IMG/VR virus record: IMGVR_UViG_3300046832_001910
Span: 1-64,000 of that record
Source: a virus
Length of the DNA stretch: 64,000 nt
Direction: 5' to 3' (one strand)
The position numbers were made by a program, and so were the translations under genes. Below are positions 13,459-52,110 of this stretch, in pieces (the stretch's first letter is position 1; each line of letters starts with the position of its first letter). The notes below the pieces were generated by a model. The model searched no databases. It worked only from the letters and a program-made list of their open reading frames with translations, and was not told the DNA's origin.

Positions 13459-15288
13459 ATGAGTAAAGCAGTTAATGAAGGACAAACTCAAGTCTATTCG
13501 GATGGTAGTATTGAACCGCAATATGGTATAAATACTGATGCGCCATATCTTAATAACCCACCAAAGCAATTACTTGATCTTATTGCAGCTTTTTATAAAA
13601 GCGGTAAATCAGATAGTCAAGTTTTAGCAATCTTGGTAGGTATGGGAACACCGCAACAATTGGCATTATCTGGTATTAATGCATTTAAAGCCGCTACTCA
13701 GATGTATACAACTGAAAACAATCAAAAAAATCATAACAATATGAAATTTACACTTGTAGGCTTATACGAAAATGTAATGAAAGCCATTAATGCATTAAAT
13801 GAAATGGGAGAAGACAAATCAAGAGTTTCTTATTCTGCTAAAAATGCTCTTGGTATTTTAGAATCTTCTTTAGGATATTTTCCAATGAGATTCTCGAGCG
13901 GAGGTATTTCAATAATTAGCGAAGACATTGAAAATAATGTTAACCCAGCTCTTAAATATAAGATTGCAAAAACTCTTCATAGAGATCTTTCTTCTTCTGA
14001 ATGGTTAAACCCAGTTAGAGAATTAAGAAGTTACATTATGGCTTCATATGATTCTTCTAAATGGTCATTTAGAATTGCTGAGGCTATTGAAAGAACATCT
14101 GCACAAAAAGGTAAACTTTATGAAGGTTTAACTAATCAGTTAGAATCTCTTTTAAAAGAATCATCTGAAGATATTAAATCTAAGTTTACTTCAATTGCCG
14201 TAAAGAATCCTTGGTCTGCTGAATGTAAGAACATTCTAAACGAAATGGCTTCTTCTGATAAAAAGGCATATTCTAATAATGGAGGTAAGATTGGAAAGAT
14301 CCTTTCTCCTGTATTAGAATCTGAAGAAGGATTAACATTCCACTTACATGGAAAGAATTATATCTTTAATGAAGGCAAGATTTCTGAAACTGAAGTAAAG
14401 GATTCACGTTTCTTCGATGTTTTAGAAGGATTAAAAATGTTTAAACTTGATGGTAGTTCATTAGTTACTTTTTCTGAAAATGGAAAAACTTTAGAATATA
14501 ACATTGAAGAAGGTACATTAAGCTTAGGTGGTGTTGATCTTACTAATGCAAGTATTGTAGAATTAAAAGAATCTTTAATTGCAACTAGATTCTTTGGATA
14601 TAGAGATCAGTGGAAAACTGATAATGTATGTAAATTCTTTGAGAATGTAGATCTTTTACACGAAATGGATAATTTCACTGGAATTACATCTACTGAATTC
14701 TTAAATCTTTTCTTAACCGTTATTGCTGTTGAGGAAGGCGTTTGGGTTAATAAGGTTAACTTAGGAATGCAAATCAATGAAATGAAATTTTATTCATCAG
14801 CAACTGAGGTTGTCAAAATGATTAAAGAATTTATTAACTATGATGCATCTTCTATCTTATCTGAAAGATTAGTTGCTGAAGGAAATCAAAAAGCTATTAC
14901 TGATAAGAAGAGAAATGAAATTAATGATAGGATCTCTTTCTTGGAAGAAAAGAAAGGTAGTATTACCGAAGCAATTAATAAATTAGGTAACTCTGAAGAA
15001 TTACAAGAAGCCTTAAAACTTATCAATACTGAAATTACTAAATTTGAAAAGGAACTTCAGGAAACTTATTCAATAGTTGAAAAAAAAACTAAAAACCAAT
15101 ACCTAGATAATGGTTTTGTAGAGGCAACAATTGAAAACCCAGTATCAGGATTTAAAGTAGATACTCAGGTTTATGTTAATGCTGAAGAATATGCTTCTTT
15201 AGGAGATAATGATTTATTAACATTCGTAGATCCTAAAAACGATAAAGAACATATCGCTAAGAAAAAAGATCTTAAAGTTAAGCTCTAA
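13459..15288 (+). CDS. Hypothetical virion-associated protein
   Basis: 609 aa; late-type motif upstream; several (V/L)xE protease-like sites; C-terminal coiled coil. Confidence 0.5.
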   Translation: MSKAVNEGQTQVYSDGSIEPQYGINTDAPYLNNPPKQLLDLIAAFYKSGKSDSQVLAILVGMGTPQQLALSGINAFKAATQMYTTENNQKNHNNMKFTLVGLYENVMKAINALNEMGEDKSRVSYSAKNALGILESSLGYFPMRFSSGGISIISEDIENNVNPALKYKIAKTLHRDLSSSEWLNPVRELRSYIMASYDSSKWSFRIAEAIERTSAQKGKLYEGLTNQLESLLKESSEDIKSKFTSIAVKNPWSAECKNILNEMASSDKKAYSNNGGKIGKILSPVLESEEGLTFHLHGKNYIFNEGKISETEVKDSRFFDVLEGLKMFKLDGSSLVTFSENGKTLEYNIEEGTLSLGGVDLTNASIVELKESLIATRFFGYRDQWKTDNVCKFFENVDLLHEMDNFTGITSTEFLNLFLTVIAVEEGVWVNKVNLGMQINEMKFYSSATEVVKMIKEFINYDASSILSERLVAEGNQKAITDKKRNEINDRISFLEEKKGSITEAINKLGNSEELQEALKLINTEITKFEKELQETYSIVEKKTKNQYLDNGFVEATIENPVSGFKVDTQVYVNAEEYASLGDNDLLTFVDPKNDKEHIAKKKDLKVKL

Positions 15289-44906: not shown

Positions 44907-45701
44907 ATGGCTAAAAGTATTGTTTGGTTTGATTTAGAAACTACTGGTGTTAACACAGCAACAGATAGGATTATTGAGATCTGTATGATTAAAACAGATT
45001 TTGAAGGAAATGAGATTGCATCTTTTTATTCACTTGTAAATCCTGGCACTGGTATTGAATGGCGCCAAGAGGCGATAGATAAACATGGCATTACACCAGA
45101 TATGCTTGAAGACCAGGATAGGTTTGAATTTATTGCCAAAGAAGTTATGGACTTTATAGGTGACTCTGACCTTGGTGGCTATAATGCACTTTACTTTGAT
45201 ATCCCAATGTTAACTGAAGAGTTTATGCGAGCTGGGCTGGTCTTTAATCCTCGCGGTAAGGCTGTAATTGATCCGTTCATTATCTATTCAAAATATGAAA
45301 GACGAGATCTAAGTACTGCTTATACAAAGTACACAGGTAAAACTTTAGAAGGTGCACACCGTGCAGAAACGGATATCCGTGCAACAATGGAAATCTTCCA
45401 GGCACAACGTAAACTTTATGATATGCCAGGATCTGCGGTTGAAATTGATCAGGTGGTTAATGAGTCTCGTCAAACCCAAGTAGATCTTAGCGGTAAGTTT
45501 AAGTTTGCCGAAATCAATGGTAAAAAAGAAGTCGTATTCAATTTTGGAAAGTGGATGGGTAAACCTTTTAAAGAAGTTTATGAAGCCGACTCACGTTACA
45601 TTGAATGGATGATTGATAAAGGAGAATTTGCAAAAGAAACTAAGATCATAGCCAGAAAACTTGTAGAAAAGATGAAGGCTGAACCACCAATGCCTTTCTA
45701 G
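44907..45701 (+). CDS. DEDDh 3'-5' exonuclease (DnaQ-like)
   Basis: FDLETTG, GYNALYFD and HRAETD motifs; C-terminal FGKW domain. Confidence 0.9.
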   Translation: MAKSIVWFDLETTGVNTATDRIIEICMIKTDFEGNEIASFYSLVNPGTGIEWRQEAIDKHGITPDMLEDQDRFEFIAKEVMDFIGDSDLGGYNALYFDIPMLTEEFMRAGLVFNPRGKAVIDPFIIYSKYERRDLSTAYTKYTGKTLEGAHRAETDIRATMEIFQAQRKLYDMPGSAVEIDQVVNESRQTQVDLSGKFKFAEINGKKEVVFNFGKWMGKPFKEVYEADSRYIEWMIDKGEFAKETKIIARKLVEKMKAEPPMPF

Positions 45702-45751
45702 AAATTGTTAATAACTTTTTTCATTTTTAGAGAAAAAAGTCTATGAAAAAT

Positions 45752-45782
45752 TTTCAAATCCCAATAATTTGTTTTATATTTA
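45752..45782 (+). promoter_or_regulatory. Putative early (host Bacteroidota-type) promoter
   Basis: TTTCA-N18-TATATTTA; near-identical context to 57476-57506. Confidence 0.6.
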
Positions 45783-45799
45783 TATAAAATAAAACGGAT

Positions 45800-46000
45800 A
45801 TGGAAATTAACACAGGATCAGTCGTAAAGTATCAAAATGGTTACTACCGCGTTACACGCTGCACCAAAAACACAGTCAATCTATCTGGAGTATGGGGCGG
45901 CCGTATTTATCACAAAGGAATTAATAAGTCTGAGGTAACTGAAGCTGCTGCTGAATGGTATGAAAGATGGAGTCAATCTGAAACCTATCAATGCATGTAA
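45800..46000 (+). CDS. Small early hypothetical protein
   Basis: 66 aa ORF directly after the early promoter. Confidence 0.6.
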   Translation: MEINTGSVVKYQNGYYRVTRCTKNTVNLSGVWGGRIYHKGINKSEVTEAAAEWYERWSQSETYQCM

Positions 46001-46001
46001 T

Positions 46002-46229
46002 ATGATACGAGAAAAAACACAACACGCCGGACCTATCGTCATTGATCTAACAGGACCTGACGGTAATGCATTCGTCCTAATGGGAATGGCCAAAAAGTTT
46101 GGTCGTCAATTAGGCTGGGACAATGGTAAATGCCAAGACCTAGTAAATGAAATGATGAGTGGAGATTATGAGAATCTTCTCCAAGTGTTTGATCGCGAAT
46201 TTGGTAACTTTGTAATTTTAGAAAGATGA
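46002..46229 (+). CDS. Small conserved-looking phage protein
   Basis: IDLTGPDGNAFVL...MMSGDYENL; ATG at 46002 preferred. Confidence 0.65.
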   Translation: MIREKTQHAGPIVIDLTGPDGNAFVLMGMAKKFGRQLGWDNGKCQDLVNEMMSGDYENLLQVFDREFGNFVILER

Positions 46230-46531
46230 ATATAGACATTGAAAAACTTAAAAAGATCGAAGAGGTCTGCGGACAATTTGAAATTGGTCGAATCATGGGT
46301 GGTGGTGATCATAACTACCTTCGCTTTGGTTATTGGAGACCGACTGATTGGACTGCACTCCAAGAGATCTTAGGTCCTTCTATTATCGTAGAAGAAGACT
46401 CCGATTATGATGATGACTGCGGTTGGAAGTATTCATACACTCTCTATGATCGCTTTGAATGGGAAAAGATTCAAAAAGAAAGACAAGAGAGATTAAATGC
46501 ATGGAGACAACCTTCCGTGAAACAATCATAA
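46226..46531 (+). CDS. Hypothetical protein
   Basis: 101 aa ORF with ATGA overlap. Confidence 0.6.
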   Translation: MNIDIEKLKKIEEVCGQFEIGRIMGGGDHNYLRFGYWRPTDWTALQEILGPSIIVEEDSDYDDDCGWKYSYTLYDRFEWEKIQKERQERLNAWRQPSVKQS

Positions 46532-46555
46532 TACATAGTTATATAAATAACGAAA

Positions 46556-46567
46556 CGTTCTTTAACA
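46556..46567 (+). promoter_or_regulatory. boxA-like antitermination site before the tmRNA
   Basis: CGTTCTTTAACA versus rrn boxA TGCTCTTTAACA. Confidence 0.6.
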
Positions 46568-46571
46568 TTAT

Positions 46572-46952
46572 GGGGGTGACCTGGTTTTGACGGTTAAGCT
46601 GAAAATAGGTTACTGATGCAAGCAGGGTTAGATGGAAACCCTTAAACACCTATCACACAATAAAAGGCGAAGAGAAATCTTCATTCACCTGGGAAGACGC
46701 AATGTCTTTCATTGGTGCTGATTACGCAGTAGCTGCCTAGTCAGTCCCGCACTCATCGTGGGGTATTAAAAAGAATGAGAACCTTGAGTACTTCTCGCTG
46801 ACTCTCTAAATAAGAGTGGGGAACATTGGTCCAATTAACGATGTTGAAGAACTAATTGGTATTTTGTTTGTTTAGAAAAATAAACTAAGCTTGTGAACGA
46901 AGGATTTAGGTTCCTTAGTCGGACATGGGTTCGAATCCCATCACCTCCACCA
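46572..46952 (+). ncRNA. ssrA: tmRNA
   Basis: Acceptor GGGGGTG/CACCTCC-ACCA with G3:U70; T-arm GGGTTCGAATCCC; tag frame 46666-46740 GEEKSSFTWEDAMSFIGADYAVAA*. Confidence 0.93.
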
Positions 46953-46956
46953 AAAA

Positions 46957-47013
46957 AGGATGCTTACAGCAAACTAGGACTAGATTTGTAAACTATACTC
47001 CTCAGCATCCTGT
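46957..47013 (+). ncRNA. Unassigned small structured RNA, copy 1
   Basis: AGGATGC.TACAGCAAACT...AGCATCCTGTA, shared with 47843-47899. Confidence 0.5.
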
Positions 47014-47016
47014 AAT

Positions 47017-47089
47017 GCGGAAGTAGCTCAGTTGGTAGAGCACAACCTTGCCAAGGTTGGGGTCGCGAGTTCGAATCTCGTCTTCCGCT
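47017..47089 (+). tRNA. tRNA-Gly(GCC)
   Basis: Cloverleaf; anticodon loop TTGCCAA. Confidence 0.95.
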
Positions 47090-47115
47090 CAAAAAGAAAT
47101 TTTACTCACATAGTG

Positions 47116-47142
47116 AAACAAACATAGTGTGAGTATATATAA
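47116..47142 (+). promoter_or_regulatory. Phage promoter (AAAC-N16-TATATAA) in front of the leader ORF
   Basis: Same motif precedes about 12 replication/metabolism genes; flanked by inverted repeat TACTCACA/TGTGAGTA. Confidence 0.6.
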
Positions 47143-47164
47143 ACAGTAAATAAAAACAAATTCA

Positions 47165-47260
47165 ATGCAACTGCACGGATGTACATATTGGATACTTAGT
47201 AATGTGGAGAAGAATTTTCCACAGGCGGATTCAATTACACACATTCCAGGCAGGAGCTAA
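47165..47260 (+). CDS. Putative attenuator leader peptide containing all 20 amino acids (MQLHGCTYWILSNVEKNFPQADSITHIPGRS)
   Basis: ATG after an A-rich initiation region; 23 distinct codons in the first 24; 3' end complementary to the terminator 5' arm. Confidence 0.75.
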   Translation: MQLHGCTYWILSNVEKNFPQADSITHIPGRS

Positions 47261-47284
47261 TGAAATAAACTCATCTAATAATTT

Positions 47285-47324
47285 AGGCCTCCTGGAAAAT
47301 AAAAAATTCCAGGAGGCTTTTTTT
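47285..47324 (+). terminator. Intrinsic terminator (attenuator) between the leader ORF and the tRNA array
   Basis: GCCTCCTGGAA (47287-47297) / TTCCAGGAGGC (47307-47317) followed by T7. Confidence 0.9.
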
Positions 47325-47333
47325 ATGGGTCTC

Positions 47334-47364
47334 TTTCAGAAAAAGATTGAGTGGTTTATATTTG
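47334..47364 (+). promoter_or_regulatory. Putative early (host-type) promoter for the tRNA array
   Basis: TTTCA-N18-TATATTTG (TAnnTTTG -7 box). Confidence 0.6.
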
Positions 47365-47386
47365 TTTAGATTAAGAATAACAAATT

Positions 47387-47398
47387 TGTTCTTTGACA
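47387..47398 (+). promoter_or_regulatory. boxA-like antitermination site before the tRNA array
   Basis: TGTTCTTTGACA. Confidence 0.65.
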
Positions 47399-47414
47399 TA
47401 TTGGTACCGATTTA

Positions 47415-47499
47415 GGAAGATTGGCAGAGTGGTCGATCGCGGCAGTCTTGAAAACTGTTGAACTGCAAGGTTCCGTAGGTTCGAATCCTACATCTTCCG
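47415..47499 (+). tRNA. tRNA-Ser(TGA)
   Basis: Cloverleaf with long variable arm; loop CTTGAAA. Confidence 0.93.
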
Positions 47500-47509
47500 C
47501 AAATCAAAT

Positions 47510-47580
47510 TGCCCTCTCGTCTAATGGCAGGACATGTGGTTTTGGTCCACAGTGTGGAGGTTCGAATCCTTCGGGGGCAA
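47510..47580 (+). tRNA. tRNA-Gln(TTG)
   Basis: Cloverleaf; loop TTTTGGT. Confidence 0.93.
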
Positions 47581-47582
47581 CT

Positions 47583-47762
47583 AATGAAACCCACAGAAGT
47601 CCGATTAGCGCGGATGAAAGGAACCTTGGCTCTCAAAGGATCGCAACCTTTTAAAGAGAGTTTGAATGTCCCAAGGTACTCTGTTCAGATTCCTGCTCTG
47701 CTGTGCACGGCAACAGGTTATGGGGAACAAACCATAAGTAAAACTCGGAGATAGGTTTCATT
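47583..47762 (+). ncRNA. Unassigned multi-branched structured RNA (~180 nt)
   Basis: Closing stem AATGAAACC/GGTTTCATT with several internal stems. Confidence 0.55.
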
Positions 47763-47766
47763 TTAA

Positions 47767-47839
47767 CGGGGAGTAGATCAGTTGGTAGATCGGGTGGTTT
47801 GGGACCATCAGGCCGCAGGTTCGAGTCCTGTCTCCCCGA
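47767..47839 (+). tRNA. tRNA-Pro(TGG)
   Basis: Cloverleaf; loop TTTGGGA. Confidence 0.93.
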
Positions 47840-47842
47840 CTA

Positions 47843-47899
47843 AGGATGCATACAGCAAACTTTACTAAACAGCAAATTTGGAAAAAAGAAGCATCCTGT
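47843..47899 (+). ncRNA. Unassigned small structured RNA, copy 2
   Basis: AGGATGCATACAGCAAACT...AGCATCCTGTA. Confidence 0.5.
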
Positions 47900-47904
47900 A
47901 TTTT

Positions 47905-47977
47905 GCCTCTGTAGCTCAGTTGGTAGAGCTACTGATTTGTAATCAGTGGGTCGCAGGTTCGAATCCTGTCGGAGGCT
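47905..47977 (+). tRNA. tRNA-Thr(TGT)
   Basis: Cloverleaf; loop TTTGTAA. Confidence 0.94.
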
Positions 47978-47982
47978 CAAAT

Positions 47983-48054
47983 GGTCTGTTCGTCTAACGG
48001 TTAGGACATCACCCTTTCACGGTGGTGATACGGGTTCGATTCCCGTACAGACTA
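47983..48054 (+). tRNA. tRNA-Glu(TTC)
   Basis: Cloverleaf; loop CTTTCAC. Confidence 0.93.
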
Positions 48055-48060
48055 CAACAT

Positions 48061-48135
48061 TGCGGGGTGGACTGGAGATGGTTCCAGCTCAGTCTCATAA
48101 GCTGAATCACATGGGTTCGATTCCCATTCCCGCAA
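48061..48135 (+). tRNA. tRNA-Met(CAT), fMet-like acceptor but atypical
   Basis: Loop CTCATAA; TGCGGGG acceptor; lacks the GGG/CCC anticodon stem. Confidence 0.82.
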
Positions 48136-48139
48136 CTAA

Positions 48140-48213
48140 GGCTCGTTAGTAGAGATGGTTACAATGTCGCCCTGTCACGGCGAAGGTCACGGGTTCGAGT
48201 CCCGTACGAGCCG
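48140..48213 (+). tRNA. tRNA-Asp(GTC)
   Basis: Cloverleaf; loop CTGTCAC. Confidence 0.93.
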
Positions 48214-48287
48214 CAAAAAATGCCGAGGTTTAATATTGACCTAAAGTAATGTGTACAGTTACATCGTAGGAAGGCTACCTACATCTT

Positions 48288-48364
48288 GGGGGTATAGCTC
48301 AGTTGGCTAGAGCATCTGCCTTGCACGCAGAGGGTCGTGGGTTCGAGTCCCTCTATCTCCACCA
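48288..48364 (+). tRNA. tRNA-Ala(TGC)
   Basis: Cloverleaf with G3:U70; encoded CCA. Confidence 0.94.
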
Positions 48365-48365
48365 A

Positions 48366-48438
48366 GATCTCGTAGCTCAGTTGGTAGAGCAATACACTTT
48401 TAATGTATGGGCCGCGCGTTCGAGCCGCGCCGGGATCA
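48366..48438 (+). tRNA. tRNA-Lys(TTT)
   Basis: Cloverleaf; loop CTTTTAA. Confidence 0.92.
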
Positions 48439-48514
48439 CAAAAAAATCGCTAATGGAAACATTGAAGGTGTACAATGCTAGCAACACCGCAGGTTAAGCG
48501 ATATCCTGCAATTT

Positions 48515-48595
48515 GCCGAAGTGGTGGAATGGTATACACGCTGGTCTTAGGAACCAGTGCTTCACGGCTTAAGGGTTCGAGTCCCTTCTTCGGTA
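48515..48595 (+). tRNA. tRNA-Leu(TAG)
   Basis: Cloverleaf with variable arm; loop CTTAGGA. Confidence 0.93.
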
Positions 48596-48599
48596 CTAT

Positions 48600-48672
48600 G
48601 CATCCTTAGCTCAGTTGGTAGAGCGCTTGCCTTACATGCAAGATGTCGGAGGTTCAAATCCTTCAGGATGTA
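48600..48672 (+). tRNA. tRNA-Val(TAC)
   Basis: Cloverleaf; loop CTTACAT. Confidence 0.93.
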
Positions 48673-48678
48673 CAAAAT

Positions 48679-48761
48679 TGGAAGGTGGGTGAGTGGTTAA
48701 AACCGGCAGACTGTAACTCTGCTCCCTTACGGGTACGGCGGTTCGAATCCGTCCCTTCCAA
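48679..48761 (+). tRNA. tRNA-Tyr(GTA)
   Basis: Cloverleaf with variable arm; loop CTGTAAC. Confidence 0.92.
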
Positions 48762-48766
48762 CATTT

Positions 48767-48840
48767 GGACCTTTAGCTCAGTCGGTTAGAGCATCGGACT
48801 CATAATCCGCAGGTCGTAGGTTCGAGCCCTACAAGGTCCA
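48767..48840 (+). tRNA. tRNA-Ile2(CAT, lysidine type) or elongator Met
   Basis: Loop CTCATAA; GGACCTT/AAGGTCC acceptor resembles known Ile2 tRNAs. Confidence 0.8.
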
Positions 48841-48845
48841 CATTT

Positions 48846-48918
48846 AGTCGATTAGTTCAATTGGATAGAACACTTGACTACGGATCAAGAGATAAGGGTT
48901 CGAGTCCTTTATTGACTA
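48846..48918 (+). tRNA. tRNA-Arg(ACG)
   Basis: Cloverleaf; loop CTACGGA. Confidence 0.92.
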
Positions 48919-48923
48919 CTAAA

Positions 48924-48996
48924 GGTGATGTAGCTCAGTTGGTAGAGCAAAGGACTGAAAATCCTTGTGTCGGCGGTTCGATTCCGTCTATCACCA
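48924..48996 (+). tRNA. tRNA-Phe(GAA)
   Basis: Cloverleaf; loop CTGAAAA. Confidence 0.94.
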
Positions 48997-49007
48997 CAAA
49001 GTAATAT

Positions 49008-49079
49008 TCCTCGGTAGCTCAGAGGCAGAGCACATGACTGTTAATCATGGGGTCGGGATATCGTAATTCCCCCGGGGAG
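49008..49079 (+). tRNA. tRNA-Asn(GTT) with non-canonical T-loop
   Basis: Loop CTGTTAA; T-arm GGGAT-ATCGTAA-TTCCC. Confidence 0.82.
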
Positions 49080-49086
49080 CAAATAT

Positions 49087-49160
49087 TGGAATGTAGCTCA
49101 GTTGGTTAGAGCACTTGCCTGATACGCATGTGGCCGGCGGTTCGAGTCCGCCCATTCCAA
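49087..49160 (+). tRNA. tRNA-Ile(GAT)
   Basis: Cloverleaf; loop CTGATAC. Confidence 0.9.
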
Positions 49161-49165
49161 CATAT

Positions 49166-49239
49166 GGTGGTCGTAGCTCAGTAGGTAGAGCACTGGATTG
49201 TGGTTCCAGTCGTCGCCGGTTCGATCCCGGTCGATCACC
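49166..49239 (+). tRNA. tRNA-His(GTG)
   Basis: Cloverleaf with G-1:C73; loop TTGTGGT. Confidence 0.93.
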
Positions 49240-49244
49240 CAAAA

Positions 49245-49315
49245 GGCACCGTGTCCGAGTGGTTAGGCGAAGGTCTGCAAAACCTTTTACACTGGTTCGA
49301 ATCCAGTCAGTGCCT
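49245..49315 (+). tRNA. tRNA-Cys(GCA)
   Basis: Cloverleaf; loop CTGCAAA; U73. Confidence 0.92.
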
Positions 49316-49324
49316 CTAACATAT

Positions 49325-49397
49325 ACGTCTGTAGCTCAGTTGGTAGAGCACTGGTCTCCAAAACCAGGTGTCGGTGGTTCGAGCCCATCCAGTCGTG
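49325..49397 (+). tRNA. tRNA-Trp(CCA)
   Basis: Cloverleaf; loop CTCCAAA. Confidence 0.93.
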
Positions 49398-49413
49398 CTA
49401 ATACATAAACCAA

Positions 49414-49863
49414 ATGAAAGTGTTCAGAAAGACAAATGGGGTCAAGGTAAATGTGATTGAACACACCCTTGAACAGCTAAGGAATTTTCCTTATGCATCG
49501 ATTCACATCGGTACTGATTCTCAAAATCATGGAGATGTAACGGTTTATAGTACTGTCATTGCATATCGCTTTGGAAACACTGGTGTGCACTATATTGTGC
49601 ATAGGCAAAAATTCCCAAAGATTTCTGATATGTGGACTCGTCTTTGGAAAGAAGCAGAAATGAGTATTGAAACTGCTGAATGGCTAACACAACAAATTAA
49701 TGTTAAAATCTCTATTGATATGGACTATAACGGAGATGAAGGTTTCAAATCAAATAAGATCATATCAGCTGCAAAAGGCTGGGCAAATTCATTAGGATAT
49801 CCGGTTAATGTAAAGCCTAATGAACAAATTGCTACAAGGGCAGCAGACTATTGCTGTCGCTAA
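49414..49863 (+). CDS. RNase H-fold protein, YkuK/DUF458-like
   Basis: IHIGTDSQ, RLWKEAEMS and A.RAAD motifs; embedded in the tRNA array. Confidence 0.8.
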   Translation: MKVFRKTNGVKVNVIEHTLEQLRNFPYASIHIGTDSQNHGDVTVYSTVIAYRFGNTGVHYIVHRQKFPKISDMWTRLWKEAEMSIETAEWLTQQINVKISIDMDYNGDEGFKSNKIISAAKGWANSLGYPVNVKPNEQIATRAADYCCR

Positions 49864-49864
49864 C

Positions 49865-49949
49865 GGAAGGTTACCCAAGTGGTGAAGGGGGCAGTTTGCT
49901 AAACTGTTAGGTCGGCAACGGCGCGAGGGTTCGATCCCCTCACCTTCCG
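49865..49949 (+). tRNA. tRNA-Ser(GCT)
   Basis: Cloverleaf with long variable arm; loop TTGCTAA. Confidence 0.93.
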
Positions 49950-49999
49950 CTCTTTCAGAATGTAACTTTATGTATTATTATTAAATAAATAGTTTAGGT

Positions 50000-50197
50000 A
50001 TGAAACAGGATTTTATTTGGGTACGTAAGGTTATCCTAAACAATGATAATAGAACAGCTCATTATGACTCTTTATTGAGGTTAATTGAGTTGTTTACATT
50101 AAAGTGGAAACACAATGAAAAGGATCCACGCTTTCATGATGCATATGTTTCATATAAAGCTTTTTTGAAACTTACCCTTAGACAACAATATAATTAA
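50000..50197 (+). CDS. Small hypothetical protein
   Basis: 65 aa ORF. Confidence 0.5.
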   Translation: MKQDFIWVRKVILNNDNRTAHYDSLLRLIELFTLKWKHNEKDPRFHDAYVSYKAFLKLTLRQQYN

Positions 50198-50232
50198 ACC
50201 AAACAGAGTTTTAGCATATAAAAATAAAAGGT

Positions 50233-52110
50233 ATGGCCGTAAGTGTAGAAAAGAGGTATCAAAAACTTACTGATACTGAGCACGTTCTCCTTCGTCCGGG
50301 TATGTACATTGGTTCAATTAAACCACATACCGAGGAAGTTTTTCTTATTAATGAAAAGAAAGGAAAGTTTGAACCTACAGAGATTACTTATAATCCAGGG
50401 TTTATTAAACTTTTTGATGAGATCGTATCCAATTCAGTTGATGAACATAAAAGAAATCCTAATCTTAACCAGATTAAAGTTACAGTAGATGAAGTAACTG
50501 GTCGTATATCAATCTGGGATAATGGTGGAATACCTGTAGAGATTCATAAAGAGTACGGAGAATGGGTTCCTGAAATGATCTTTAGTAATCTTAAAACAGG
50601 AAGTAACTTTGATGATACCGAAGATCGTACTGTTGTTGGTACCAATGGCGTTGGTAGTACTCTTACCAATATATTTAGTAAAGAATTTAGAATTGAAACA
50701 TGTGATGGCAAAAAATCATTCTTACAGATTTTTTCAAATAACATGTCATCTAGGACAGAGCCGGTAATTAAATCTCATAAGAAAGGCTATACTGAAATTT
50801 CATACATTGCAGATTTTGATAGATTTGGAATGAAGAAGATTGATAAGTCTTCTCTACAAATGATCCAAAGAAGGCTTTATGATATTGCTGCATGTAATAC
50901 TTCACTAAAGATTTATCTTAATGATACCTTAATATCATTTAAGAACTTTAAGGAATACGCTGAACTCTATACTGATAATGTTTTTTATGAGCAGTCTCAA
51001 AATTGGAGAATTGGTATAGGTCATTCTACCTCAGGATTTAAAGCAATATCATTTGTAAATTCAGTAGAGACTAAAGACGGTGGTACACATGTTAATAATG
51101 TAACATTTCAAATCATTCAGTATCTTAGAGAAAAGATTAAGAAAAAGTACCGTGTAGATGTAAAGCCTACTGACTTAAAACAACACATCTTTCTATTCAT
51201 TGACTGTACTGTAATTAATCCGGCTTTCTCATCTCAAACAAAAGAGAAACTCATTACTGAACCAAAGGACTTTGGAAGTATTCATGAACTTTCAGAAAAG
51301 ATACTTAAACAAGTATTTGGTTCAGAAATCATTCAATCGGTTCTTGATTGGATTGAAAGAAAACAAGCAGCCGAAGAAAGAGCAAAACTTAGAAAGTTAA
51401 ATAATAACCTTGATAAGTCAAAGGTAATTAAACTTATTGATGCTAAGAAAACGGGAGATAGGAAAGGATGTACCCTTGCAATCTTTGAAGGTGATTCTGC
51501 ATCATCTGCATTCCGCCGTTACCGTGACCCACAAACACAGGGTGCATTTCCTCTCCGTGGAAAGTTTATTAATGTAAGAGAAATTCCTGACTCAAAGGTT
51601 GTACAAAATAAAGAAGTACAATCTCTTATGGCAGCAATTGGATTAAAGATTGGTCATGAACCAAAGGATCTCCGTTATGGTAAAGTTTTACTTTATACCG
51701 ATGCCGATGTTGATGGTAATTCAATTTCTGCTCTTCTTATAAACTTCTTTGGTAAGTATTGGCCTGAATTATTTGAGGAAGGTAAAATCTTAAAGGTTGA
51801 AACACCTCTTATGGTTGCAAAGAAAGGAAAAGAAACTCTTAGTTTTTATTCTGATGAAGAGTATAAAGAATGGGAACAAAAACAAAAATCATTATCTTCG
51901 TGGAATATTGAATATAAGAAAGGATTGGCTGCATTGGAGGACGAGGAATATCAGGAGATCATTAGAAGCCCTAGATCATACTTTCTTACAAAAGATAATG
52001 GATTTAACAGTACATTAAATATCTGGTTTGCAGGTGACTCTACACCCCGCAAAAAGAAAATTTTAGGAGAATCTGTAGAAATTAAAACAAGCAATAAATC
52101 TCTTTTTTAA
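50233..52110 (+). CDS. Type II topoisomerase ATPase/TOPRIM subunit (gp39+gp60 fused)
   Basis: HVLLRPGMYIG, GTNGVG, EGDSA, PLRGK, DADVDG and YKKGL motifs. Confidence 0.95.
   Translation: MAVSVEKRYQKLTDTEHVLLRPGMYIGSIKPHTEEVFLINEKKGKFEPTEITYNPGFIKLFDEIVSNSVDEHKRNPNLNQIKVTVDEVTGRISIWDNGGIPVEIHKEYGEWVPEMIFSNLKTGSNFDDTEDRTVVGTNGVGSTLTNIFSKEFRIETCDGKKSFLQIFSNNMSSRTEPVIKSHKKGYTEISYIADFDRFGMKKIDKSSLQMIQRRLYDIAACNTSLKIYLNDTLISFKNFKEYAELYTDNVFYEQSQNWRIGIGHSTSGFKAISFVNSVETKDGGTHVNNVTFQIIQYLREKIKKKYRVDVKPTDLKQHIFLFIDCTVINPAFSSQTKEKLITEPKDFGSIHELSEKILKQVFGSEIIQSVLDWIERKQAAEERAKLRKLNNNLDKSKVIKLIDAKKTGDRKGCTLAIFEGDSASSAFRRYRDPQTQGAFPLRGKFINVREIPDSKVVQNKEVQSLMAAIGLKIGHEPKDLRYGKVLLYTDADVDGNSISALLINFFGKYWPELFEEGKILKVETPLMVAKKGKETLSFYSDEEYKEWEQKQKSLSSWNIEYKKGLAALEDEEYQEIIRSPRSYFLTKDNGFNSTLNIWFAGDSTPRKKKILGESVEIKTSNKSLF

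Follow-up and report, generated by a model that had tools for sequence, protein, structure and literature searches.

A 31-codon reading frame containing all 20 amino acids as candidate leader of a transcription attenuator before a phage tRNA array

What is the role of a 31-codon open reading frame (ORF) that uses all 20 amino acids and lies directly ahead of the long tRNA array of a lake phage? We analyzed this question in a 64,000-nt stretch of DNA (hereafter, the window; positions 1 to 64,000 of IMG/VR virus record IMGVR_UViG_3300046832_001910), which belongs to a viral record of 117,611 bases (G+C content 34.7%, CheckV completeness 38%). Here, a spacer of 324 bases separates tRNA-Gly(gcc) from the tRNA array, and this spacer holds both the ORF and, behind it, an intrinsic terminator (coordinates of all features are collected in Table 1). 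On balance, we favor the reading that a ribosome-coupled transcription attenuator precedes the array and that the ORF serves as its leader, with translation inferred. What was computed here is the ORF with its extreme composition and its conservation, the terminator, an alternative pairing and the linkage of the leader to large arrays; leader translation, stalling-dependent read-through and a biological trigger would complete the scheme.

The first line of evidence is the composition of the leader ORF, in which 19 amino-acid kinds fall within the first 24 codons and 20 kinds within the whole frame. A sequence-only reading of the window, made by a model without database searches, had proposed that the leader codons mirror the anticodons of the downstream array, and the counts behind this proposal were reproduced. 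ARAGORN placed 21 tRNAs serving 19 amino acids downstream, with Gly(gcc) just upstream, and the first 24 leader codons contain a cognate codon for 20 of the 21 downstream tRNAs, the exception being Arg(acg). The leader also uses both Ser boxes (AGT and TCA) and both Ile types (ATA and ATT), and its Leu codons are CTG and CTT only; TTA makes up 39% of the Leu codons in 95 long ORFs of the phage. The mismatches listed by the same reading were recovered as well, i.e., GGA (codon 5) and AGG (codon 30) lack a cognate tRNA and no leader codon serves Arg(acg). Three qualifications apply to these counts. The sole ATG of the leader is its start codon, so the elongator Met tRNA is not sampled; Leu(uag) reads CTT only if U34 reads the whole box; and the AGG at codon 30 lies outside the first 24 leader codons.

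To what extent could such a frame arise by chance? When random 24-codon frames were generated from phage codon usage, 0 of 400,000 reached 20 tRNAs (mean 11.0–12.7, maximum 19). Among 69,822 stop-free 24-residue segments taken from the six frames of the record, three contained 19 kinds, and all three were at the leader ORF. Simulated 31-residue peptides contained all 20 kinds in 109–124 of 400,000 cases, and a survey of 1.05 Mb of other viral loci returned one ORF with 20 kinds among 4,064 ATG ORFs of 20–36 codons. That sole ORF (L198 2764–2865, minus strand, 33 codons) sits between a permuted tmRNA and the tRNA-Ser of an array, on a contig unrelated to the window; by eye, no clear terminator follows it.

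We next consider how the leader has been kept among relatives, which were viral and metagenome contigs found via neighboring genes and exact patterns. In the relatives of the window lineage, all 22 tRNAs recur in unchanged order. The leader frame is open in five DNA versions (the window and four others) and in two further protein versions, and 20 kinds are present in all five DNA versions, with identity to the window peptide down to 77% in L044 and 32% in G001. The L044 peptide has seven changes, of which two remove singletons (Lys16 and Phe18) and two others restore them (Lys17 and Phe24). A hand count of the base changes between the window and L044 leaders gave approximately 10 non-synonymous and approximately 5 synonymous changes; the peptide is therefore weakly constrained and its composition retained, which is what one expects of a leader with a dispensable product but important codons. 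G001 is a much more distant phage, with an exonuclease 68% identical to that of the window; its leader of 34 codons is flanked by the same promoter-like motif and a terminator and is followed by approximately 32 tRNAs.

We also modeled peptide drift by random replacement. Going from the window to L044, 20 kinds survived the 7 changes in 2,614 of 40,000 trials, while going from the window to G001, 20 kinds survived the 21 changes and 3 insertions in 235 of 60,000 trials; from L044 to a protein-database version (P0006), at least 19 kinds survived the 14 changes in 2,681 of 40,000 trials. Together, these results lend good support to the notion that what selection maintains is a broad sample of amino acids and tRNAs, not a particular peptide.

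Further lineages of the leader were also sought. A leader profile search gave six matches, of which three were leaders, and two conserved leader/terminator patterns retrieved no contigs beyond the known lineages. In a collection of phage isolates, no relative of 47100–47420 was found, as the two records that matched did so over 16% of the query each and in the terminator only; a 3.5-kb query returned tRNA pieces only. In the G001 record, about three tandem copies of a unit of about 120 nt lie between the leader terminator and the first tRNA (L054 13400–13720), further copies of this unit occur elsewhere, and a tRNA-like gene (L212 7784–7854; Rfam 54.6 bits) has a 6-nt anticodon loop and was assigned no amino acid by ARAGORN.

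These data also bear on the idea that the stretch is a non-coding structured RNA or a plain spacer, with a coincidental 20-amino-acid frame. The RNA of the leader region indeed folds well (z −5.65), and the start context of the ORF is A-rich and carries no Shine-Dalgarno sequence. However, the same holds for the genes of this phage, among which 1 of 95 long ORFs has a Shine-Dalgarno-like 5-mer, the frame is open in all seven versions, and a composition with a chance of about 3 in 10,000 per ORF recurs after 68% divergence. We therefore regard a coincidental frame as highly improbable. The scarcity of Shine-Dalgarno sequences also points to Bacteroidota as the likely hosts. A search with cmscan (E up to 1, 45500–50500) found no Rfam leader or T-box family in 47091–47414.

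The second line of evidence concerns the RNA structures at and behind the end of the ORF. The terminator, which a consensus scan had missed because that scan accepts loops of 3–8 nt only, has an energy of −21.5 kcal/mol in the window and of −18.0 to −22.5 kcal/mol across versions; in an alignment of five sequences, 57 of 57 cells of the helix are paired, with two compensatory pairs. The last codons of the leader can pair instead with the 5′ arm of this terminator. For this proposed antiterminator, the energy is −15.5 kcal/mol in the window and −11.3 to −15.7 kcal/mol across versions, and 41 of 42 cells are paired, with one compensatory pair. Specifically, a G-to-A change in the terminator 5′ arm of G001 (alignment column 61) is matched by C-to-T changes in both the leader strand and the 3′ arm. 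Helix energies of −15.5 and −21.5 kcal/mol are within the range reported for the trp attenuator.

Switching was modeled by folding RNA that ends before the 3′ arm, with the ribosome footprint masked. With the ribosome at or before codon 22, the 5′ arm was paired with a probability of 0.85–0.91 in the window, L002 and L044 (apart from two dips, to 0.75 and 0.72), and this pairing fell to 0.37–0.48 from codon 26 (L002 and L044) or codon 29 (window) up to the stop. G001 behaved alike, with 5′-arm pairing of 0.69 versus 0.30–0.55. In the window lineage, this switch zone begins where the amino-acid-rich part of the ORF ends, and the fit is poorer in G001.

How might such a module work? Transcription would start at the promoter-like motif near 47113–47142. 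A ribosome that reads the leader to its stop would cover codons 27–31 and keep them from pairing with the terminator 5′ arm; the terminator hairpin would then form, and transcription would end at 47318–47324. If the ribosome were instead held at any of codons 2 to approximately 24, or never started, codons 27–30 would pair with the terminator 5′ arm, and the antiterminated RNA polymerase would continue into the tRNA genes. Because the sensing part offers one or two codons per amino acid for 19 amino acids, it would sample almost every tRNA species that the array supplies. The module would thereby act as a feedback gauge of tRNA supply, making more tRNAs when ribosomes run short of any of them, and its trigger may be the loss of tRNAs during infection, e.g., through host anticodon nucleases.

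Several observations weigh against this scheme. The two protein-database versions have 19 kinds, with P0006 lacking Cys and the P0002 tail lacking Ala; both come from short contigs, the longest being 2,865 nt for P0006 and 954 nt for P0002. In G001, Gly, Cys and Asn first appear at codons 28–30, inside the modeled zone in which a ribosome blocks the antiterminator. The covariation comes from five sequences, and the antiterminator score was equaled by 91 of 500 shuffles; the compensatory pairing of the antiterminator, as read from the alignment, is suggestive only. When the whole terminator was present, the equilibrium fold favored it at every ribosome position (P 0.82–0.98), and any switch would therefore need to operate kinetically. 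Even when no ribosome is present, the antiterminator forms in RNA ending before the 3′ arm (P 0.71–0.90), which means that an untranslated leader should read through, and no clear trp-type 1:2 hairpin that could terminate the untranslated leader was seen. Finally, a second promoter-like site follows the terminator and precedes the array, which may not need read-through.

This last point leads to a different view of the locus, in which the ORF, its promoter and its terminator form a separate small gene, for a peptide or a small RNA, and the array is driven from 47335–47362, the two being mere neighbors. The ORF is indeed bracketed by its own promoter-like motif and a strong terminator, that terminator always forms at equilibrium, and a promoter-like site is at hand 3′ of it. 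With regard to these sites, the motif ahead of the leader had one match in the window and none in 100 shuffles, and it is kept ahead of every leader version, G001 included; on other viral contigs, it mostly precedes unrelated genes. The number of promoter-like consensus sites in the region, by comparison, is no higher than in shuffles. Against a separate gene stands the drift of the peptide, which falls to 77% and 32% identity with only the amino-acid set kept, unlike a peptide whose sequence matters, as does the pairing of the ORF end with the terminator arm, compensation included.

Contigs from RNA libraries also speak against a separate gene. In two freshwater studies, RNA-library contigs cross from the leader interior to the T-run (47166–47410 and 47212–47395) and thus bridge the terminator, with DNA carry-over possible; a third RNA-library contig reaches 47352, and library contigs do not show transcript ends. 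In RNA runs X1, X3 and X4, contigs cover the leader and none covers 49414–49863. Such a gap in cover proves nothing by itself, yet it gives a hint that the leader contigs derive from RNA and not from carried-over DNA.

The third line of evidence is the linkage of the leader to large arrays. Of 26 loci with a related exonuclease gene, 15 show at least 6 kb downstream of that gene. All nine of these with 12 or more visible tRNAs have the leader, and none of the six with 0, 1 or 7 tRNAs does; the nine leader-positive loci represent three sequence versions and hence a small number of events. In L041 and L042, the genes found behind the array in the window come directly after the tmRNA and a single tRNA. 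In L050, a relative with seven tRNAs, no matched leader was seen by eye in the 270-nt spacer. The unit is lost along with the array in relatives, and a comparable layout with matched content precedes the tRNA blocks of other phages (see below), both of which argue against mere neighbors. Taking both sides together, we consider a separate gene unlikely and retain the attenuator as the preferred reading.

Within an attenuator, are the leader codons tuned to the anticodons of the array or only to its amino acids? We tested this with the peptide fixed and synonymous codons drawn from phage usage. Under strict wobble, in which U34 reads A and G only, 28 of the 31 leader codons are readable by the array, compared to 23.4 expected (P 0.010). 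Under relaxed wobble, in which U34 reads whole boxes, 29 of 31 are readable, compared to 28.6 expected (P 0.55). In addition, rare codons of the phage are overrepresented in the leader (log-likelihood P 0.002), and G endings are preferred even where any ending is readable; this bias could alone yield the strict-wobble signal. The attenuator may thus be real and the codon choice of the window leader not tuned to the array anticodons. The apparent mirror would then follow from a leader with all amino acids, an array with one tRNA per amino acid and a taste for rare, often G-ending codons.

Comparison of relatives gave a mixed picture on this point. In place of ATA, L002 and L003 have ATT and L031 has ATG, and L044 carries ATA at another position, while the Ile2-like tRNA, and the tRNA set as a whole, remained unchanged. 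GGA and AGG have no cognate tRNA in the window, where Arg(acg) is also unsampled, and the AGA of the G001 leader has no cognate in 90.9 kb. Along with the result under relaxed wobble, the atypical codon usage and the G endings, which are found in two-codon boxes as well, these observations weigh against tuning in the window and speak for an untuned leader. Conversely, the G001 array has four anticodons more than that of the window (ucg, aag, uaa and ucc), and the G001 leader has CGA, CTT, TTA and GGG; the window leader has no CGR or TTR codons, which fits its own array, but has CTT and GGA, which does not. G001 has both the tRNAs Leu(uaa) and Arg(ucg) and the leader codons TTA and CGA, the window neither, and this argues against an untuned leader, as does the strict-wobble result. 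The expectation that leader codons would track array content across relatives is therefore borne out by CGA and TTA with Arg(ucg) and Leu(uaa) in G001, and contradicted by ATA within the lineage and by CTT, GGA and AGA. For the window alone, we leave the codon mirror undecided, and we regard a wholly untuned leader as possible but rather doubtful.

A broader sample was available in a set of loci collected for another purpose, each with at least five same-strand tRNAs, in which leaders were picked without reference to composition. A terminator qualified if a tRNA preceded by a gap of 140 nt or more lay no further than 1 kb downstream of it, and the candidate leader was the longest ATG ORF of 12–60 codons ending between 60 nt before and 12 nt after the start of the terminator hairpin. 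This gave 27 rows, from which L008, L024 and L226 were dropped because they belong to the lineage of the window or represent an alternative frame of a cut locus, leaving 24. The 24 candidates include related contigs (L112/L160 and L158/L190), arrays cut by contig ends and some chance ORFs, all of which limits the weight of the results that follow.

In this class, leaders follow their own arrays in amino acids, codons and six-fold boxes. The presence or absence of amino acids in leader and array agreed in 314 of 480 cells, compared to 262.2 when permuted, a value reached in 2 of 20,000 permutations. Among informative codons, meaning those of served amino acids for which the codon chosen makes a difference, 121 of 176 were readable by the leader's own array, compared to 96.2 (standard deviation 6.0) from local usage, which was reached in 1 of 5,000 simulations; when arrays were permuted among leaders, the observed readable share was reached in 2 of 5,000. 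Relaxed wobble left 65 of 89 codons readable, reached in 21 of 5,000 and 5 of 5,000, respectively, and the use of Leu, Arg and Ser boxes agreed with the presence of the corresponding box tRNA in 48 of 64 cells, compared to a permuted share of 0.588 (reached in 68 of 20,000). The signal did not hinge on the locus studied here: without the window lineage and G001, 97 of 146 codons were readable versus 80.5 (8 of 5,000), or 59 of 80 versus 48.2 under relaxed wobble (16 of 5,000), and amino acids agreed in 276 of 440 cells (4 of 20,000). That class codons and six-fold boxes follow their own array, against both local usage and permuted arrays, argues against an untuned leader. Codon-to-anticodon tuning is thus supported for the wider class and not proven for the window.

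The layout of these leaders is also shared. The last 36 nt of the leaders are complementary to the terminator 5′ arm beyond shuffles (mean z −1.60, with 10 of 24 below −1.64), and the leader stop codon lies 23–34 nt ahead of the terminator arm in 17 of 24. Individual loci show a short ORF and a terminator before partial tRNA blocks, with amino acids matching the block (L117, L158, L190, L112, L160, L182, L111, L176 and L101). In L117, 20 of 32 leader residues belong to the six kinds served by its block; L190 has Arg tRNAs and Arg codons, and its relative L158 has neither.

A generalization then suggests itself, to which we would give an even chance: phage tRNA arrays may commonly be under programmable leader attenuators, each with a test ORF written in the codons of its own block, so that a phage would gauge missing tRNAs one by one (e.g., when an anticodon nuclease has struck) and replenish just those. 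The window would be the limiting case, in which one leader samples nearly the whole set. The proposal of the sequence-only reading that sensor and payload have co-evolved accordingly survives in part. The amino-acid set is kept, the leader occurs with large arrays only and leaders track their arrays at the class level, whereas the codon mirror in the window does not carry it (relaxed P 0.55, ATA not kept in close relatives).

What the array as a whole can decode bears on the same proposal, in which it was called a minimal complete replacement set rather than a codon-bias supplement. Every amino acid is served by the 22 tRNAs of the locus, and U34 is found in each four-codon box. Of the 61 codons, 42 are read under the strict rule or 54 under the relaxed rule, corresponding to 74.5% or 91.3% of phage codon usage; even the latter rule leaves TTA, TTG, AGA, AGG, CGG, GGA and GGG unread. 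The commonest Leu and Arg codons of the phage are TTA and AGA, respectively, with TTA accounting for 3.1% of all its codons. That both are left unread agrees with the view that the array is not a simple codon-bias supplement; the set is complete for amino acids but not for decoding, where TTA, AGA and GGA remain unread. A check of the rest of the 117,611-base record for Gly(TCC) and Arg(TCT) found neither, nor any further tRNA gene. A relative, L009, carries Gly(ucc) and Arg(ucu) directly after the last Ser tRNA, and the window lineage may therefore have lost them.

A caveat to the ATA match, namely that the CAT tRNA at 48767 might be Met, was settled in favor of an Ile2-like tRNA. Its best Escherichia coli matches (80% identity, full length) are annotated as tRNA-Ile with a CAT anticodon. 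On the opposite strand of 48767–48841, the best sub-threshold Rfam match is the plastid ycf2 5′ untranslated region (39.7 bits; gathering score 65.7), an element that adjoins plastid trnI-CAU. The other CAT tRNA, at 48061–48136, combines an odd D arm with a U1-A72 pair and reaches no more than 30 bits with the tRNA model of Rfam. Closest to it are genes for tRNA-Met in Gordonia phages (81.3% identity across 84% of the tRNA), and by sequence it looks like a phage tRNA-Met.

Which known systems does the proposed module resemble? The leader-peptide attenuators of amino-acid operons (trpL, hisL, leuL, thrL, pheL and the ilv leaders) likewise have a short ORF followed by an intrinsic terminator, an alternative hairpin that shares the terminator 5′ arm and regulatory codons that match what the operon supplies; that ribosome position selects the hairpin is proposed here for the phage. 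Unlike them, the phage-borne module would regulate tRNAs instead of enzymes, and in its leader almost all amino acids are represented by one or two codons each, in contrast to a run for one to three of them. It also differs from the trp attenuator in that the phage leader has no clear 1:2 hairpin and, untranslated, should read through. General sensors of slowed translation are known as well, including antibiotic-responsive ribosome-mediated attenuators and the mexXY/armZ leader of Pseudomonas aeruginosa. With these, the phage leader would share a general response to ribosome stalling rather than to one amino acid, but they control resistance or rescue genes and do not contain a complete amino-acid sample; to our knowledge, none has been reported upstream of tRNA genes.

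Two further bodies of work concern tRNA arrays themselves. In Anabaena, a cryptic long tRNA operon is induced under translational stress (PMC8421152), and its control is assigned to the protein repressor TrcR (PMC10272220). An extra, near-complete tRNA array that is switched on when translation is impaired is what we propose for the phage also, whereas a protein repressor sets the Anabaena operon apart (PMC10272220); the text of PMC8421152 has 0 occurrences of "attenuat," "leader" or "terminator." Phage tRNAs have also been described, in titles and abstract openings, as a counter-measure to host tRNA-cleaving defenses (PMC10264068, PMC11555353 and PMC12409363). Such defenses would give a phage a reason to sense the loss of any tRNA and to answer with its own set. 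The titles and opening abstract lines of these three papers treat the tRNAs themselves and mention no sensing leader (PMC10264068, PMC11555353 and PMC12409363). A literature search that left supplementary files outside its scope found no published leader-peptide attenuation of tRNA genes.

If the attenuator reading is correct, the textbook leader-peptide attenuation of amino-acid operons would also regulate tRNA genes, and would serve a phage to gauge the decoding capacity of its host. This would bear on the control and purpose of phage tRNA arrays, with ties to the work on tRNA-cleaving defenses, and would provide a compact natural sensor of tRNA supply, open to testing by simple reporter assays. 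From the agreement of leader codons with array anticodons at the class level, one could in turn predict which tRNAs a given leader reports on.

Table 1. Features at and around the leader ORF, in window coordinates
Feature	Coordinates	Strand	Remarks
Phage tmRNA	46572–46952	+	ARAGORN; Rfam RF00023, 107.2 bits; upstream of module, outside terminator control
tRNA-Gly(gcc)	47017–47090	+	ARAGORN; Rfam tRNA 71.8 bits; sole tRNA upstream of leader
Promoter-like motif before leader	47113–47142	+	Putative promoter
Leader ORF	47165–47260	+	31 codons and stop; all 20 amino acids; codons 2 to ~24, proposed sensing part
Proposed antiterminator 5′ strand	47244–47254	+	Leader codons 27–30; would pair with 47288–47297 of terminator 5′ arm
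Intrinsic terminator	47285–47324	+	13-bp stem (47285–47297 with 47307–47319), 9-nt loop, 7 T (47318–47324)
Second promoter-like site	47335–47362	+	Between terminator and first tRNA; consensus match only, 9/12 positions
boxA-like motif	47389–47403	+	Immediately ahead of first tRNA; kept in all versions
Array of 21 tRNA genes	47415–49950	+	ARAGORN, Rfam; 19 amino acids, Gly excepted
RNaseH_like ORF	49414–49863	+	Before last tRNA; PF04308, 75.5 bits; phrog_11311 (function unknown)

The remaining features of the locus are listed with the module in Table 1, with ARAGORN and Rfam being concordant on the RNA genes. The tmRNA carries a tag of 24 residues, compared to 9 in the tmRNAs of the relatives L041, L042 and L050. 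An exact scan of viral contigs with the boxA-like 15-mer returned at least 116 stretches; among the loci listed, some have tRNA arrays and most have few or no tRNAs. A boxA-like motif is likewise present in L054 (the G001 phage) at 13836–13857.

The RNaseH_like ORF is the sole protein gene within the array. Its relatives were found in 22 viral loci, with tRNAs in view in 14 and none in view in 8. In the 180-nt spacer between tRNA-Gln and tRNA-Pro, 47682–47743 (plus strand) gave a near-threshold match to the full model of the Rfam freshwater-1 RNA (RF02979; 68.6 bits versus a gathering score of 72). Since the Gln and Pro tRNAs are only a few bases apart in the L002/L003 lineage, this freshwater-1-like element is an insertion in the window lineage.

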